From the NCBI GenBank assembly GCA_036794995.1, contig DAIRFP010000001.1, forward strand, positions 25,549 to 89,548: a DNA stretch of 64,000 nt, read 5' to 3'. Origin of the DNA: Thermodesulfobacteriota bacterium (GTDB lineage: Bacteria; Desulfobacterota; Binatia; UBA9968). The notes beneath the pieces were generated by a model, which saw nothing but the letters and a program-made list of their open reading frames with translations, was not told the origin of the DNA and did no database searches. The position numbers and the translations under genes were made by a program. Below, piece by piece: positions 4,680-46,701 of this stretch. Each line of letters opens with the position of its first letter. Position 1 is the stretch's first letter.

Positions 4680-4755
4680 GGAAGTATTGATGCAGGGCTG
4701 CGAAGCGCTGCAGCCAAGGCCCGAGTGGTAATGGGTGATTGTGATCCAAGCGGTT

Positions 4756-5163
4756 CTAGATTCGGTGGATCGGAATCACTTCGGCGTTGGCGGGGTAGGT
4801 ATAGTGAGGGTGTAATCGGAGGTTGATATTCAAATGCCCCTCTGCATCGCCTTTGTTGGTCCTATGGATGACGTTCCAGTTTGCGGTCTCCAGATCATTC
4901 TCGAAACAAATCCAATGTATTTCCAGATCTGCTACGTGCGAAAGAGATTGCACGATAGATTCCCGATAGGCCGACAGACAAAATCTGACCTCGTCAACGA
5001 TACAGTTTTTGCCGTCTTTCAAGCAGTCCATGAGGACGATGAGGTCTCTATCATCGGCCAATAAGCTGGTGAATCGCCTCGCCCCGGTTTGCTTTTCTAA
5101 TTGCTCCGATAGGTGAGTTTTTCCGGAACCCGACAAGCCCAGAATAAATGTCACTTTCGCCAT
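4756..5163 (-). CDS. Small P-loop NTPase (about 135 aa), family unassigned
   Basis: Walker A GLSGSGKT near the N-terminus (MAKVTFILGLSGSGKTHL) and a Walker-B-like CIVDE. I prefer the internal ATG at 5163 over the ORF-track start at 5283. Confidence 0.5.
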   Translation of the reverse strand: MAKVTFILGLSGSGKTHLSEQLEKQTGARRFTSLLADDRDLIVLMDCLKDGKNCIVDEVRFCLSAYRESIVQSLSHVADLEIHWICFENDLETANWNVIHRTNKGDAEGHLNINLRLHPHYTYPANAEVIPIHRI

Positions 5164-5377
5164 TACTGTGCCTCGACACGGCTGAGTCTGTATATCTCGC
5201 CGCCCATCTCTCCGTGAGTAGCCGGGTGACTTCGTAGGTACCCCGCTGCATGCCGACCACGGCCCCCAAATGCTTCGGAACACCCCGAGCGGCGCATGTC
5301 ATGACGTCCAGGGTATTGTCGTCTTGCTAGCGGATGCATATCGACCATGGGCGCATTCCTCTTTTTGCGCAGACGTT

Positions 5378-6493
5378 TTACCAGGCGTTGTACATAATTT
5401 CCAAGAGTCGTTGTTCGGTTTCAGGTGTGTCGAGCCTTCTGGCTTTCAGTTCCGCGCTGCAAATTCGTTTGCAAAAGGCGATAGCCGCCTGATTGACGAT
5501 CATGGCTTTACCGTTCATCGTCGGATGGCCGGTGAATCTACCGTGTGACAAGAAGACGCTCTCTTCGGGATGATAAATCAGATCGTAGAACCCCACACCC
5601 TTCGGAACTGCAGCCGCAATGGCCATGGAGATTTTAAGGTTGGCGTCAATCGCGTGGCTGGCAAGTTCGCGCCAGCGCTGTCGCGCCGCCACTTCACTGC
5701 CGGAAAAGCCTCGTAAGACGGGGGCGGATGACGGTGCGAGGGACGAGAACGGCTCCAGGTCGGTAACTTCATTGTAGGATAGCCTACGTAGGCCCCCTTG
5801 TCCCTTCGTCGTGCTGTTGACAACCAAGCCGGCTTTCGGAGCCCAGGCAGCAACTTCCGCCTCGCTGATCGCTAAGGCGTTCCGGCCCAGCTTTTGGATC
5901 TCCGCCGCGAGAGAAGCGGCGTGCTCTAAGGTTCGATTACTGATGACGAGCCTGCCGTCTTCCAGGTGGTCAGAAAGGTGAAATGCCACCGCCCTGGCAG
6001 AGCCGCCGGCGCCCAGAAGTAAAACGTCCCGCCCTTCGAGCGACTCCACGAAGCGCTGGGGCTGTCCCGGCTGAGGCTTCGAGATACTTTGGATGAAGCC
6101 TTCGCCGTCGGTATTGAATCCGAGGAGCCGACCCGCCGAGGTTCTAACAACCGTGTTGACGGCCCGAATGCGCTGGCTGGCGGGATCGAGTTCGTCTAAG
6201 AAGTCCATAACCCGCATTTTATGAGGAACCGTGACATTCATGCCGATGAAACGATCGCAGCTCCGAAGCGCGGAGACGAGGTCCGGAAGACGAGATCCGT
6301 CGATGTCAAAGGGCAGGTAGACGGCGTTTATGCCAAAATGACCGAAACCAGCGTTCCAGAGGGCCGGGCTCTTAGAATAATGGGACGGCCCGTCGCCGAT
6401 GATACCGGCGATGCGATTGTTGCCAAGGTCAGTTTGCGCCAACCGATTGGTAACGCAATTTTGGATAGCCCTTAGGTTGTCCTCAATTGTCAT
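5378..6493 (-). CDS. Shikimate/quinate 5-dehydrogenase family protein (AroE-like, with a long internal insertion)
   Basis: Motifs NVTVPHK, NTDGEGF and GAGGSARAV are present. At 371 aa it is about 100 aa longer than typical AroE. The extra sequence sits in the NAD(P)-binding half. Confidence 0.7.
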   Translation of the reverse strand: MTIEDNLRAIQNCVTNRLAQTDLGNNRIAGIIGDGPSHYSKSPALWNAGFGHFGINAVYLPFDIDGSRLPDLVSALRSCDRFIGMNVTVPHKMRVMDFLDELDPASQRIRAVNTVVRTSAGRLLGFNTDGEGFIQSISKPQPGQPQRFVESLEGRDVLLLGAGGSARAVAFHLSDHLEDGRLVISNRTLEHAASLAAEIQKLGRNALAISEAEVAAWAPKAGLVVNSTTKGQGGLRRLSYNEVTDLEPFSSLAPSSAPVLRGFSGSEVAARQRWRELASHAIDANLKISMAIAAAVPKGVGFYDLIYHPEESVFLSHGRFTGHPTMNGKAMIVNQAAIAFCKRICSAELKARRLDTPETEQRLLEIMYNAW

Positions 6494-6575
6494 GGCGCTT
6501 CTCCGCGTCGCCTGAGAGTTTACATGCTGGCGGGAAAATTCCCCACAGAAGGAATGGCGCGCAGGAAAGATCGAG

Positions 6576-8009
6576 CTAATGAACCGGCTTGATCGTCAAC
6601 TTATCGTCAGCGAAGCAGAGCAGGGACTTTTTGTCGTTGATGACCGTTTCGAGGACTACCTCGCGTCCCCATAACTGTCGCAAATATTGCAGGGTCTTTT
6701 CGGCGTACTCAAGCTGGAGGTCGCGCCCGTCGTGACTGTGTTTTATGAATAAACCACGGTTATTGCTGTAATCGGCATCCTCGACCTTAATGACCGGAAT
6801 CGTTCCCGTGCCGACGCTTTGGATCAACGTGTCCTTGATCGCTTGCCAGCTGTCTTCGTCAGCCACACGACTGACAACTTTCTCATGACCCCGCGATTGG
6901 TACTCAAAAAGGTTGAGTTCGCGAACCAGGTTCTCGGTGAGATAGCGCCTCAGGAAGGAACTGTCTCGTTCGACTTCGCGCACTTCATAGAGCTTTTCCT
7001 GGGCGTTTTTCTTCTTATGGCCGTACTCCTTTTCTTCCTCGGGATCCGGTTGGCTCCAACGTTTTTCAATATCTTCCCACACCTTCATGCCGACGTGGTA
7101 GGGGTTGAGGGAGCCGGGCGCGGGACTCAAAACCTGCGTATGCCGAACCAGAAATTCGATTTTAAGGCTTTGCGGAAGATCCAATGCCTCAAGAATGCGC
7201 TTGTGCCAGAAGCTCGCCCAACCTTCGTTCATGATCTTGGTTTCAATCTGGGGAATAAAGTACTGCGCCTGCTCGTGAACCATGGTCAGTAAATCTTTTT
7301 CCCATTCGGCAAGCTGAGGATTGTGATCACGGATAAAAAGCAGAATATCCTCTTCGGGATGCACTGGGACCTTGGCGAGATCCGGCGATACCCACTCCTT
7401 GCGCCGGTGTACTGACTGGAATGGATCGAAGGGTGGTTTCGAATCCCGAAGTTTGGCGTCTTTTTGTTCGGTTTCTGTCTGTTTTCGAATCGAAAGATTA
7501 CGCCTGCACTGGAGCGACAACGCATGGGCGGCATCTAGAATACGCTCCACCTTTTCGAGACCGATGCTGGGATCTTCGACGTAGTGGCGCACTCGGTTCG
7601 CATGGGCTTTAAAGGTTTCGATAGTAAATTCGGCCCGGATCGTCCTGAAGGTAAAGTTGTTTTTAAAGAAATCGTTATGGCCGTAGACATGAGCGATGGT
7701 GAGGACCTGCAAAGCGAGGGTATTATCGCGCATGAGATAGGCGATGCAGGGATTGGAGTTGATCACCATCTCATAGGGCAGCCCGCTCAGACCATAGTCA
7801 TAAAGAGTTTTGAGCTTCTCGAAGGCCTTACCGTAGGACCAATGCGGGTAGTGTGAGGGCATACCGGAATAGACCATATAGGAGAGCATCTGCTCGTGGT
7901 CGCAGATCTCGAACTCTTGAGGATAGGGGTTAAGACCGAAACCCTCGACCAAGTCAATGATTCGTTGATTCCATTCCTGGAGGTCTTCGACGGTATAACT
8001 TGCTGCCAT
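6576..8009 (-). CDS. spoVR: SpoVR family protein
   Basis: 477 aa with the characteristic HVYGHNDFFKNN segment. Positioned after the yeaH/yhbH-like and prkA genes. Confidence 0.85.
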   Translation of the reverse strand: MAASYTVEDLQEWNQRIIDLVEGFGLNPYPQEFEICDHEQMLSYMVYSGMPSHYPHWSYGKAFEKLKTLYDYGLSGLPYEMVINSNPCIAYLMRDNTLALQVLTIAHVYGHNDFFKNNFTFRTIRAEFTIETFKAHANRVRHYVEDPSIGLEKVERILDAAHALSLQCRRNLSIRKQTETEQKDAKLRDSKPPFDPFQSVHRRKEWVSPDLAKVPVHPEEDILLFIRDHNPQLAEWEKDLLTMVHEQAQYFIPQIETKIMNEGWASFWHKRILEALDLPQSLKIEFLVRHTQVLSPAPGSLNPYHVGMKVWEDIEKRWSQPDPEEEKEYGHKKKNAQEKLYEVREVERDSSFLRRYLTENLVRELNLFEYQSRGHEKVVSRVADEDSWQAIKDTLIQSVGTGTIPVIKVEDADYSNNRGLFIKHSHDGRDLQLEYAEKTLQYLRQLWGREVVLETVINDKKSLLCFADDKLTIKPVH

Positions 8010-42251: not shown

Positions 42252-43253
42252 CTATATTGAGAATTTGAGATTTCCGACCGCCATCCGGTCACGCCAACCA
42301 ACCCAAAGATTCGTGCTCAGATATTTGTCGCCGAAATCAGGAAATACCGTGACTAACGTGCCGGTGCGGAGTTTGCGCGCGACTTTCAAGGTGGCAAACA
42401 TGGCTGCTCCGGATGACTGACCCACTAGAACTCCTTCTTCCTGACTCAAGCGATAAACCATTGCATAGGCGTCTTCAGTGGCAACAGGGATCTTTTCGTC
42501 CAACTCTTCTTCGTGGTATATCCCAGGCACGATGGAACTAGCCATGTGCTTGAGACCTTCCAGGCCATGAAGCGAGTCGTCAGGTTCCACGGCGAGAATC
42601 TTGATATTTGGATTTACCTCCTTGAAATATCGGCCCGTGCCCATAACCGTTCCGCCTGTGCCAATCCCCGCAATGAAGTGCGTAATCTGTTGCTGCGTTT
42701 GCCGATAGATTTCCGGACCTGTGGTTTCATAATGAGCCTGGGGATTCATCGGATTGAAATATTGATCTGGCTTGAAATAACGCTCAGGGTTTTCTTCGAG
42801 AATTTTTCTACATAGGCGAATGGCGCCATCCGAGCCTTCTAATGGGTCGCTAAAAACGATCTTTGCCCCGTAGGCAGTTATGATCTGTTTGCGTTCCCTG
42901 CTCACGTTTTCCGGAACGACTAACTCCACCGAATAACCGAGGACGCAACCGATCATGGCAAGGGCGATTCCGGTGTTTCCCGAGCTGGAATCCAAGATCG
43001 TTTTATCCGGTCGTAGCTTTCCTGAGCGAATTCCTTCCTGCACCATTCTCAGTGCGGCGCGATCCTTAACCGATCCGCCCGGATTAAAACCTTCCAATTT
43101 TGCATAGACCCGCACGCTTGCAGGGAGGCCTTCGGTGAGCTTGCGAATTTCGAGTAAGGGGGTATCGCCGATCAAATCCAGCACTGACTCGACTTTCCTG
43201 GGCTCCTTTGACGGGACCGGAACGAGGCGAAGAAGTGGAGTCGTTTGTGCCAT
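42252..43253 (-). CDS. cysM: CysM/CysK-family PLP-dependent sulfhydrylase (CysO-thiocarboxylate-dependent cysteine synthase-like)
   Basis: 333 aa with PLP-lysine motif GGSVKDR and SSGNTG. The start ATG overlaps the stop of the upstream CysO-like gene by 1 nt (TGATG). Confidence 0.85.
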   Translation of the reverse strand: MAQTTPLLRLVPVPSKEPRKVESVLDLIGDTPLLEIRKLTEGLPASVRVYAKLEGFNPGGSVKDRAALRMVQEGIRSGKLRPDKTILDSSSGNTGIALAMIGCVLGYSVELVVPENVSRERKQIITAYGAKIVFSDPLEGSDGAIRLCRKILEENPERYFKPDQYFNPMNPQAHYETTGPEIYRQTQQQITHFIAGIGTGGTVMGTGRYFKEVNPNIKILAVEPDDSLHGLEGLKHMASSIVPGIYHEEELDEKIPVATEDAYAMVYRLSQEEGVLVGQSSGAAMFATLKVARKLRTGTLVTVFPDFGDKYLSTNLWVGWRDRMAVGNLKFSI

Positions 43254-43558
43254 CAGCGCCTCTGCCTCTGTGCGGGCGTTTGCAGTCCCCCGGCGATCGC
43301 CGGGACAATCGCGATGTTATCACCCTCTTTTAACGCTGTTTCCAGGTTTTGTAGAAAACGGATATCGTCACCGTTGACGTAAACGTTTACAAAGCGGCGG
43401 ATCTTGCCGGTTTCATCGCAGATTCGTTCTTTAATACCAGGGAAATTCTTCTCCAGGTCTTCGACCATCGTCTTAACATTGATGCCTTGCGCGCTGACCT
43501 CGTCGGCACCTTGAGTGAACTTTCTAAGCGGAGTGGGTACGCGAACTCGTACTGGCAT
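43253..43558 (-). CDS. cysO: MoaD/ThiS-family sulfur-carrier protein, CysO-like, with a 10-aa extension after the Gly-Gly
   Basis: 101 aa with ...RRFVNVYVNGDDIRF...GDNIAIVPAIAGG followed by LQTPAQRQRR and the stop. Pattern strongly resembles mycobacterial CysO (from memory). AAGGAGG SD upstream. Confidence 0.8.
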   Translation of the reverse strand: MPVRVRVPTPLRKFTQGADEVSAQGINVKTMVEDLEKNFPGIKERICDETGKIRRFVNVYVNGDDIRFLQNLETALKEGDNIAIVPAIAGGLQTPAQRQRR

Positions 43559-43760
43559 AGGGAGCCTCCTTCGAATCTATCGAGAAATCACTTGATGAAT
43601 TGCGCATCCATGTCGTTCTAATAAGATAAACTCTCGTCTTGTTCCTTGCAAACCTCCACCCTCCAAGACGCGATCCGTCTAACTAGCCGCCGCGCGTGCT
43701 GTCGCTGTTGGACTAAGCTGCTGGCAAAGTTTATCGAAGTTTTCGAGAGTCGCACGGATG

Positions 43761-44013
43761 CTAAAAGGGCTTTTCGAGGGGTGTAAAGCCGGAATACAGA
43801 CCAACCTGTGGTTCCCCATCGATGGCAAGCAGTTCTCCATAGCACCATAGGTTTTTGCCGCGGGAGGTGATTTTTTCCCGACTGATGTATGACTTGTTGC
43901 TATCGTAGTCACAGATTATTTCCGAGGGTCCAAGCAGGTTTCACATACGTGAGTGGCTGCTTCGGAGCGTCCTGCCCGCACTCTCTGCATTGAAGTCCTA
44001 GGACAAAACTCAT
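43761..44013 (-). pseudogene. Threonine-synthase-like (ThrC/MetM-like) N-terminal remnant, frameshifted and truncated
   Basis: ATG at 44013 has a GAAAGGAG SD. Three frames in succession read MSFVLGLQCRECGQDAPKQPLTYV / VCETC / LGPSEIICDYDSNKSYISREKITSRGKNLWCYGELLAIDGEPQVGLYSGFTPLEKPF*. This is the zinc-ribbon plus LWRY..LLP...GxTPL pattern of long-type ThrC N-termini. Only about 480 nt separate the flanking genes. Confidence 0.65.
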
Positions 44014-44041
44014 TGGGGTACTCCTTTCACTGATTTCGATC

Positions 44042-44833
44042 CTAGGTGCTGGTGGCAGGCGATTTTGTCGCGGATTCGACACCGCAGGCCAGGCAATGGG
44101 CGTCTCTGCTGACATTCACGACGTAAAACTTCATCCATCTCGCGTCGAACGTGAGCAATCGATCCGTCAGCAACCCTTCTTCGAAGCCGGCGAGATACTT
44201 AATTGCTTCGATTGCCTGGATCGAACCCACGGTCCCTGCGACGGCGCCGAGTATACCGGCTTGCTGGCAACTCAAGATTTCTTCGAGCGGAGGTGGTTGC
44301 CCGAAGAAACATCGATAGCAGGCGCTTTTTCCAGGTACGACTGTCATGGTCTGCCCTTGCAGCCGAACGATTCCAGCATGCGAAAAGGCAATGCCCAGAG
44401 CCACAGCAATGTCGTTGACTAGAAATTTTGTCGCGAAGTTGTCGCTGCCGTCAACAATGAAATCGTAACCTGAAAGGATTGCGGCTGCGTTGTCCGGTTC
44501 GACCCGAGCGGCATAGGTTACGACTTCCACGTCGGGGTTCAGGAGGCTAATTTTTTCTTTGGCGGAGTCCACCTTGCGCCGGTCCCGGTCAGACGTCGTG
44601 TGCAAGATTTGTCTCTGCAAATTGGATAACTCCACGTGATCGGGATCGACCAAGCCGAGGGTGCCGACACCAGCGGCGGCTAGATAGAGCGCTGCCGGAG
44701 AGCCGAGTCCACCGGCTCCGACGACCAAAACGCGAGCTTGCCGAAGCCGGACCTGTGCTTTCCCACCCAGATCGGGAATCATGATCTGCCTGCTGTATCG
44801 CTCAATTTGGTCTGTGGTAAGGCGAATGCTCAT
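44042..44833 (-). CDS. ThiF/MoeB/HesA-family E1-like adenylyltransferase (no rhodanese domain)
   Basis: 263 aa with RYSRQI, the nucleotide motif VVGAGGLGSPAALYLAAAGVG, and two CxxC pairs (CYRC, CLAC). Confidence 0.9.
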   Translation of the reverse strand: MSIRLTTDQIERYSRQIMIPDLGGKAQVRLRQARVLVVGAGGLGSPAALYLAAAGVGTLGLVDPDHVELSNLQRQILHTTSDRDRRKVDSAKEKISLLNPDVEVVTYAARVEPDNAAAILSGYDFIVDGSDNFATKFLVNDIAVALGIAFSHAGIVRLQGQTMTVVPGKSACYRCFFGQPPPLEEILSCQQAGILGAVAGTVGSIQAIEAIKYLAGFEEGLLTDRLLTFDARWMKFYVVNVSRDAHCLACGVESATKSPATST

Positions 44834-45601: not shown

Positions 45602-46624
45602 CTACTTGGAAGGTTTCGACTTCTGATACTTTCGGTAATCGTATCCTGTGGCCATAGCCAGTAGGATATCTTCCATACCCCCATTCTTTTCCCGCCTGAG
45701 GACCAAGAGCCTGTCGTAGAATTCCTTGAAGTCTTTATAGATCCGTTGACTATCGTCGGTCTTTCTCAGATAAAAGTCCTTAATTCGAGTGACGGTGAAT
45801 CGCAGAGCGGAAAAACGAAGCTCGTTGGGAAACGAATCCCATTCCGGAAGAGAGAGAGGGCGAAGGCTTTCATAGCCGGAGATCAGCGCTTCGAAACGGT
45901 CAATGCGGTATCGTTGGTCAACGAAACAGAGCGCATTAACCGCTGTCGCCAAGTCGTATATTAGCTTGCCGCGACAGGCCGCTTCAAAATCCATGACCCC
46001 GGCCAGGCGACTGCCCTTGAACTTGACATTATCGGGGAAAAAGTCTCCATGAATAATTCCCTTGGGGAGATTGTTGTCGAGGTAGTTCTCCAGGTATGAG
46101 AACTCATCGTCCAGAACTCGAACAATGTTTCTTAGGTGGGTTGGAAGTTGTCGACGTACTTCACGGTAAATGGCGACGATTCTGCTGAAGCCAAATCGGT
46201 TATCGATACCTTTTTTGTAACTTCTTCCGATTAGATGCAGGTTGGCTAAGGTGTGACCTAAAATTCCCAGATGGGTGGCAGTGAGAGACTCAATTGGGAG
46301 ATCAACGCCGTCCAGATAGCGGCTGACGGTCAGGCATTTACCCCGGAAGTCAATGTAGTATCTCCCCGTCTTGGTTTTGAGGGGTTGTAGGCAAGGGAAC
46401 CCTTGCTTCCTCACGTGAAACAGCAGATCCAACTCTTGCTTTACTTCAAGTTCACTTTTGACTTCATCGATCTTGGCAAAAAACCTCCCCCGTTTAGTTT
46501 CTAGTAGATAGTGGGTATTCACTGAGCCATTCTTGACGCCGGAAGAGGACACCAAGTCCCCCAAGGTGAACTCTTCGGCGATCCTCGTCGCATCCTTCCT
46601 TGTAACTTCAGTGTAAATAGCCAT
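45602..46624 (-). CDS. thrB: Homoserine kinase type II (ThrB_alt; APH/choline-kinase fold)
   Basis: 340 aa. The N-terminus (MAIYTEVTRKDATRIAEEFTLGDLVSSSGVKNGSVNTHYLLET) and the catalytic IHGDFFPDNV motif match the pattern of protein-kinase-fold homoserine kinases. Confidence 0.7.
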   Translation of the reverse strand: MAIYTEVTRKDATRIAEEFTLGDLVSSSGVKNGSVNTHYLLETKRGRFFAKIDEVKSELEVKQELDLLFHVRKQGFPCLQPLKTKTGRYYIDFRGKCLTVSRYLDGVDLPIESLTATHLGILGHTLANLHLIGRSYKKGIDNRFGFSRIVAIYREVRRQLPTHLRNIVRVLDDEFSYLENYLDNNLPKGIIHGDFFPDNVKFKGSRLAGVMDFEAACRGKLIYDLATAVNALCFVDQRYRIDRFEALISGYESLRPLSLPEWDSFPNELRFSALRFTVTRIKDFYLRKTDDSQRIYKDFKEFYDRLLVLRREKNGGMEDILLAMATGYDYRKYQKSKPSK

Positions 46625-46701
46625 CGGTTGTTTCCTGATCAACCCTTACAGGCATACGAAAACCCAAGTATTACGCACCCCTGCAAAGGCTAACTAAGCC
46701 A

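Follow-up and report, generated by a model that had tools for sequence, protein, structure and literature searches.

A unitary pseudogene of the threonine synthase family within a sulfur-carrier cassette of a Binatia genome, and the recurrent loss of its orthologues

In the stretch of Binatia DNA analysed here (64,000 nt, hereafter the window, whose numbering is used throughout), an E1 gene and a sulfur-carrier gene that follow one another on the minus strand are separated by a spacer of 483 nt (43559-44041), which raises the question of what this spacer once encoded. A sequence-only reading had put the gap at about 480 nt, in agreement with the measured length, and had proposed that it holds a frameshifted, truncated gene resembling threonine synthase (ThrC). 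We therefore describe the locus, then the remnant and its lesions, and ask what the gene was and why it could be lost.

The genes on both sides of the spacer are intact and read from the minus strand. Upstream, a thiF/moeB-type E1 adenylyltransferase gene (44042-44833, 263 aa; PF00899, E 2e-78) also matches the NCBIfam MoeB and SAMP-activating E1 models; a rhodanese domain is absent in the Pfam and NCBIfam searches. The operon leader contains a weakened SAM-I riboswitch (RF00162, 44890-44992, minus strand), scoring 41.7 bits for a gathering score of 44.4. Beyond a small divergent membrane ORF lies, in the same orientation as the cassette, an intact alternative-type homoserine kinase gene, thrB_alt (45602-46642, minus strand; NF003558 / TIGR00938, E ~1e-60, under the curated cut-offs). 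Its placement is kept in relatives (synteny at L010, L011 and L047), and its predicted product would supply O-phosphohomoserine. Downstream of the spacer, a ThiS/MoaD-type carrier gene (cysO/metO-like, 43253-43558, 101 aa; PF02597, E 2.7e-17, with further matches to the NCBIfam SAMP1 and MoaD-family models) is followed by a cysM-type cysteine synthase gene (42252-43253, 333 aa; TIGR01136 cysKM, 352 bits, over the cut-off), the start of which overlaps the cysO stop.

The carrier C-terminus varies among relatives. In the window (43253-43285, minus strand) it ends in AIAGG followed by 10 residues, LQTPAQRQRR; the Gly-Gly is followed by a single Cys in G001 (L010 3711-3989) and by ANSH in G002 (L011 3697-3984), two genomes of the same genus. 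Such a variable tail past Gly-Gly would need removal. One Prok-JAB/JAMM gene was found in the organism's own genome, on another contig (C254:24179-24493, 57.8 bits).

A Shine-Dalgarno sequence, GAAAGGAG (44028-44021, minus strand), lies 7 nt before an ATG at 44013-44011, as read earlier. The frame from this ATG gives MSFVLGLQCRECGQDAPKQPL.. and stops at TGA 43911-43909, a second frame gives VCETC, and a third gives EIICDYD...LWCYGELLAIDG...GFTPLEKPF up to TAG 43763-43761; when the sequence was re-read, all three frames and the closing stop were found as they had been quoted. The N-terminal motifs of the remnant are a zinc ribbon, EIxYDYD, LWxYxELL and GFTPL. Once the frames are joined, residues 1-81 of the read-through peptide align collinearly with positions 3-83 of the 406-position NCBIfam profile NF006050 (threonine synthase; E 3.2e-8). 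A Pfam search with the 85-aa read-through peptide returned no significant match, and only full-length NCBIfam models detected it.

Comparison with syntenic loci, a check that the sequence-only reading had itself named, revealed what is missing. In a DNA search against 40 related genomes, thiF and the first ~250 nt of the spacer matched, ~0.93 kb was skipped, and the match resumed at the spacer end and cysO. The skipped DNA belongs to an intact 420-aa ThrC-family gene, which sits between thiF and cysO in both G001 and G002 (L010 2320-3582; L011 2312-3574) and to which the remnant DNA is ~76% identical at the same site.

Codon-level comparison with these two loci resolved four lesions. A first frameshift results from the loss of 1 nt in a C-run after codon 21 (CTCCAC to CTCAC, ~43951). 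A second is due to the loss of 1 nt within 43933-43923, for which two placements fit, in TTC or at the T of a CTG three codons later; the earlier suggestion of a T lost from TTC, whose restoration would give CFGP, is thus compatible with the data but is not the unique solution, and the CTG version costs fewer substitutions. The third lesion is a 927-nt deletion with its junction at 43776/43775 (minus strand), which removed codons 81-389 (309 codons) in phase with the local frame and fused GFTPL to EKP. The codons lost, which span the entire PLP-binding catalytic core with its SYKDR motif (K110 in relatives' numbering), come close to the roughly 300 missing codons, PLP lysine included, that had been estimated. 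The junction was fixed at the codon level, a lenient DNA alignment having broken the large gap into many small ones. Both break points have the sequence TC|G in relatives, and this 3-nt TCG microhomology is too short to support a claim on mechanism. Last, the T-run 43766-43763 has gained 1 nt, and this insertion produces the TAG at 43763-43761.

The remnant extends beyond this TAG. The true C-terminus (SIRATLENFDKLCQQLSPTATARAAAS, 27 residues) runs past it in another frame to the ancestral TAG at 43681-43679, so that codons 1-80 of the ancestral gene survive at 43776-44013 and codons 390-420 (E390 to G420 in relatives' numbering, 31 codons), with the ancestral stop, at 43679-43775, 120 nt upstream of the PF02597 carrier gene. 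Thus the start proposed for the remnant was right, but the end, formerly placed at 43761, moves to 43679. For the same reason, the description of the two short ORFs called in the spacer as out-of-frame readings fails for the 77-aa ORF (43679-43912), which is not wholly out of frame since the C-terminal codons survive at 43775-43679 and make up its last 27 residues; neither ORF is a gene. The remaining codons are split over three frames, and no single open frame contains the PLP lysine and the catalytic domains. We conclude that a ThrC-family gene of 420 aa has left a real, non-functional remnant, a unitary pseudogene, at 43679-44013 (minus strand), and the sequence-only proposal of a frameshifted, truncated ThrC-like gene is therefore upheld by both the profile match and the mapped lesions.

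We searched public assemblies for independent contigs with the exact CysO and ThiF proteins of the window. Sixteen distinct contigs (JGI, ENA and Logan), including one of 540 kb and several from short-read assemblies, match the region at 97-99.8% identity, and the 14 that span the whole spacer were aligned. The 927-nt deletion and the second frameshift are present in 14/14. The first frameshift is polymorphic (9/14 contigs keep the ancestral extra C), as is the additional T (absent from 7/14), and one contig of the 14 has a further 2-nt deletion at 43880-43879. Because the lesions are shared by independent assemblies, they are not an assembly error of this metagenome-assembled genome (MAG), an alternative that had been raised together with the original proposal. 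The deletion and the second frameshift are fixed in the sampled contigs of the population, while two small indels still segregate; therefore, the pseudogene is still decaying in nature. The loss had been called recent, and it does postdate the split from the same-genus relatives; however, the fixed deletion and an excess of ~0.09 non-synonymous changes per site temper this term.

Pairwise dN/dS between the window and its relatives was uninformative, dS being saturated at 1.1 or more, and constraint was therefore assessed from an invariant-site count and a relative-rate dN. Of the 37 sites conserved throughout 37 intact Binatia orthologues, the remnant has replacements at 5 (Y16A, Y35C, I40N, R58C and P64A), while the intact orthologues show at most one departure each, and the dN of the remnant to outgroup orthologues lies ~0.09 above that of same-genus intact genes. 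Within the population, the remnant shows ~30 SNPs and 12 indel columns per kb; in cysM there are 10 variable sites (10/kb; 7 synonymous and 4 non-synonymous alternative alleles) and 0 indels. These results show that the remnant is no longer under constraint, whereas thiF, cysO and cysM have remained intact. Counts from promoter and terminator scans were close to those expected by chance; since the terminator scan found no terminator-like site inside the remnant, it is probably still transcribed, as a spacer.

One cysM variant affects annotation. Codon 103 (window 42947) carries a Cys/Arg polymorphism in 5/10 population contigs, and in contigs with this variant some gene callers begin cysM 23 codons later (310 instead of 333 aa).

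What, then, was the lost gene? The order thiF, thrC-like, cysO, cysM is found in at least 43 of 80 loci encoding relatives of the intact protein and is the conserved Binatia order, in line with the earlier view that a ThrC/MetM-like partner has been lost from the cassette. On Planctomycetota and Omnitrophota contigs the order is thrC-like, cysO, thiF. In most of the 80 loci, over several phyla (contigs of Binatia, Planctomycetota and Omnitrophota), the ThrC-like gene is immediately followed by a carrier gene; the sulfur-carrier gene is its constant partner. By profile, the intact orthologue reaches 309.6 bits with NF006050 (cut-off 303) and 289.4 bits with TIGR00260, over the cut-off. Since it just passes NF006050, threonine-synthase activity is compatible with the sequence, which counts against a MetM reading. 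The closest solved structures are all threonine synthases, and the search of solved structures with the intact orthologue found none of a MetM. Orthologues bear the name 'threonine synthase' in IMG; the account in GapMind 2026 describes MetM as a ThrC homologue to which the name threonine synthase is often wrongly given. From the carrier-gene adjacency, the SAM-I riboswitch and the distribution across 41 genomes, the intact gene most likely encodes a MetM-type, sulfur-carrier-dependent homocysteine synthase.

Some loci contain unusually long frames. In G002 (L011 1484-3574) the thiF stop is absent, and the E1 and the ThrC-like gene form one open frame of 696 aa; in another genus, open frames of 561-745 aa surround the ThrC-like match (G028, G030, G032 and G039). 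These may be natural E1-MetM-like fusions, an idea that fits the mixture of 'threonine synthase' and 'adenylyltransferase' members within one protein cluster at 90% identity.

The riboswitch points to methionine. In Binatia relatives, RF00162 upstream of thiF scores 78-94 bits (Rfam), and in two Planctomycetota loci the element lies directly upstream of the ThrC-like gene (~69 bits). A SAM riboswitch on the operon or on the gene signals methionine rather than threonine control. In the window, P2 is shortened to 5 nt where the model expects 14, and this weakened form is common to all nine population contigs tested (41.7-44 bits). Among other genomes that have lost the gene, G013 has no detectable riboswitch, but G008 and G017 keep strong ones, so that erosion is not a necessary consequence of the loss. 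Erosion of SAM control thus sometimes, though not always, accompanies gene loss.

We next considered the distribution of the gene among 41 genomes, the organism's own (G000) and 40 relatives. The cassette gene is intact in 34 (76-93% identity). A MetH-type homocysteine methyltransferase domain is encoded by 38/41, DUF39/HcyBio by 0/41, and a PF01053 (Cys/Met-metabolism PLP) enzyme is absent from 18/41, including all 11 members of one genus with several closed assemblies. All 18 genomes without PF01053 keep the cassette gene intact, and no other homocysteine synthase can be recognised in them. Of the 41 genomes, 29 have a 448-aa ThrC paralog, and most of the rest have a short ThrC type; this roughly complementary distribution, as though the two types took turns in the housekeeping role, fits the housekeeping threonine synthase better than does the cassette gene and suggests that the cassette gene is not needed for threonine. 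Binatia genomes have up to six ThrC-family paralogs, and the short type lacks the zinc ribbon.

The gene is lost or broken in 6/41 genomes: G000, G008, G013, G017, G025 and G027. In G008, ~90 nt separate thiF from cysO and nothing of the gene is left; G013 keeps a decayed N-terminal piece (LQCREYGHEDSQQPVH...) and G017 a C-terminal one (tblastn E 2e-4). In two closed or nearly closed genomes of a sister family, both with intact flanking thiF, cysO and cysM, the gene is broken at full length: that of G025 (closed; L131, G025:C1:3364954-3366174) is interrupted by four TGA and one TAA and has shifted blocks, while that of G027 (L132, G027:C1:510054-511309) has one frameshift at residue 302 that could still be a sequencing error. 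We built a tree from ThiF and CysM (603 columns, FastTree), which is a locus tree and not a species tree. The sister of the window is the intact G001 locus (support 0.995), and that of G013 is likewise an intact locus (0.985); G017 is nested among six intact loci (0.998), G025 and G027 form a sister pair (0.92), and G008 is placed elsewhere with weak support. Since the loss genomes are scattered among intact ones, the gene was lost separately at least three times, and probably four or five times.

The losses follow another gene. On contig C148 of the organism's own genome, a 448-aa zinc-ribbon ThrC gene (4712-6055) directly precedes, with a 10-nt gap, a 417-aa gene of the cystathionine-gamma-synthase (CGS) family (6065-7315; L041). 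This pair of a 448-aa ThrC with a type-A CGS, for which the best NCBIfam models all score under their cut-offs, is conserved in 16 relatives, and all six loss genomes carry the CGS-family orthologue (at least 81% identity) directly beside the 448-aa ThrC. Loss occurs in 6/16 scorable genomes with type-A CGS versus 0/24 without (hypergeometric 0.002) and, among genomes with the 448-aa ThrC, in 6/16 with CGS versus 0/13 without (0.017), figures that overstate the significance because the relatives are not independent; the association rests on related genomes, some of them incomplete MAGs. Even so, the losses track CGS and not the ThrC paralog, which suggests that it is the presence of CGS that allows the cassette gene to be lost, as would be expected of a gene that made homocysteine. 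The 448-aa ThrC and CGS pair may also form a branch point at O-phosphohomoserine comparable to the one in plants.

How do other explanations fare? The most serious one takes the ancestral gene for an ordinary threonine synthase, present by chance in a sulfur-carrier operon, its loss being offset by a ThrC paralog (the 448-aa C148 gene, or those on C197 or C390). The scores above the TIGR00260 thrC and NF006050 cut-offs and the nearest structures are what this explanation would predict; moreover, the organism retains three intact ThrC-family paralogs and the 448-aa ThrC is present in every loss genome. However, this same paralog, when found without type-A CGS, never coincides with loss (0/13), the SAM riboswitch ahead of the operon or gene is a methionine-type control, the carrier gene adjoins the ThrC-like gene across phyla, and 18 relatives with MetH would otherwise be left without a recognisable homocysteine source. 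We thus regard an ordinary threonine synthase as unlikely.

Two further explanations concern the remnant itself, and we consider both highly improbable, the second even more so than the first. The remnant could have been reused, as a zinc-ribbon mini-protein of ~32-34 aa translated from the kept Shine-Dalgarno and ATG, or as a spacer for cysO/cysM expression: population variants without the first frameshift would encode a complete CxxC...CxxC peptide, and probable transcription through the remnant, free of terminator-like sites, would allow it. Yet the second CxxC is broken in the allele carried by the window itself, the remnant has a higher density of indels and SNPs than the flanking genes, and other lineages kept different pieces (the N-terminus in G013, the C-terminus in G017) or nothing (G008). 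Alternatively, the frameshifts and the deletion could be artefacts of assembly or binning in an organism that has an intact gene. Indeed, the genome is a MAG of 419 contigs with 7% estimated contamination, and all three 1-nt indels are in or beside short homopolymer runs. Against this stand the contigs from different samples and pipelines, all site-spanning ones sharing the deletion and the second frameshift next to intact flanking genes, as well as the replacements at otherwise invariant sites. Besides, the organism's own genome has no second orthologue elsewhere: the other ThrC-family genes (C197, C390 and C148) are at most 37-38% identical.

We therefore favour, with a probability of about 0.8, a joint explanation in which the spacer holds a dead 420-aa ThrC-family gene that was probably MetM-like and whose loss was tolerated through a CGS-family enzyme. 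The lost enzyme would have worked like the MetM of Streptomyces albulus (UniProt A0A059WBP2), making homocysteine from O-phosphohomoserine and the sulfur of a carrier thiocarboxylate, with O-phosphohomoserine provided by the neighbouring homoserine kinase and the carrier activated by the E1. The CGS-family enzyme beside the other ThrC paralog (C148) would offer a second homocysteine route. The leftover cassette (E1, carrier and CysM) most likely serves cysteine synthesis only, with a leader riboswitch that would be eroding too; since thiF, cysO and cysM are intact, it probably still makes cysteine via the carrier thiocarboxylate. A broader proposal, to which we give even odds, is that in Binatia the MetM-type and the ThrC-linked CGS-family routes are interchangeable for making homocysteine from O-phosphohomoserine, that the MetM-type gene is free to decay where both are present and has done so at least three to five separate times, and that the SAM riboswitch erodes after the methionine function is lost.

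Taken by itself, the pseudogene is an ordinary case of gene decay within a recently described enzyme family, and it is the comparative pattern across Binatia that adds value. The locus carries a warning for annotation: the cassette here would be the cysteine-only remnant of a dual cysteine/homocysteine sulfur-carrier operon, and in many Binatia genomes the intact orthologues named 'threonine synthase' are the only recognisable homocysteine source. The analysis adds comparative support for the recently described MetM pathway, and the restriction of repeated, independent losses to genomes with a CGS-family gene provides a testable prediction of pathway redundancy in a phylum without cultured members. 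If the two routes are indeed interchangeable, these natural knock-outs provide evidence, of a comparative kind, for the function of MetM in this uncultured phylum, and the type-A CGS-family enzyme becomes a candidate bacterial O-phosphohomoserine-dependent homocysteine or cystathionine synthase.

The surviving part of the cassette resembles the CysO-CysM-Mec-MoeZ cysteine pathway of Mycobacterium tuberculosis, in which the carrier gene directly precedes the gene for a CysM-type PLP enzyme and an E1 is required to form the thiocarboxylate: the carrier gene, the CysM-type gene and the E1 are common to both. The mycobacterial cluster differs in that it has no ThrC-like gene and has mec next to cysO, whereas the single Prok-JAB gene found in the organism studied here lies on a different contig (C254), and 10 residues follow the Gly-Gly of the carrier.

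The intact Binatia orthologues are closest to MetM/MetO of S. albulus (Hasebe et al. 2024, Appl Environ Microbiol 90:e0124724, as cited in PMC13759103 and PMC12172450), where a ThrC homologue is described as making homocysteine from O-phosphohomoserine. In the accounts of PMC13759103 and PMC12172450, the sulfur comes from the thiocarboxylate of the MoaD-like MetO, with the assistance of an E1 (MoeZ) and the protease Mec; according to PMC12172450, metM lies behind a SAM riboswitch. Compared by description and context, the two systems share the gene family, the carrier adjacency, the involvement of an E1 and the SAM riboswitch; unlike S. albulus metM, the window gene is dead, and the Binatia operon adds cysM and has an E1 without rhodanese domain. 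A carrier thiocarboxylate also gives sulfur for homocysteine in the HcyS/HcyF/HcyD and MetY system of Wolinella succinogenes (Krishnamoorthy and Begley 2011, as related in PMC5764234), but there the enzyme is a MetY-type (PF01053) O-acetylhomoserine sulfhydrylase and not a ThrC-family protein as in Binatia. Finally, thrC of Microcystis aeruginosa is 51.6% identical to MetM and adjoins a metO-like carrier gene, and the account in PMC12172450 reports for it mainly threonine synthase/deaminase activity and no upstream SAM riboswitch. That gene is intact, unlike the window remnant, but both share the pairing of a ThrC-family gene with a carrier gene, and the Microcystis case illustrates how widespread this pairing is and that threonine synthase is its usual annotation.
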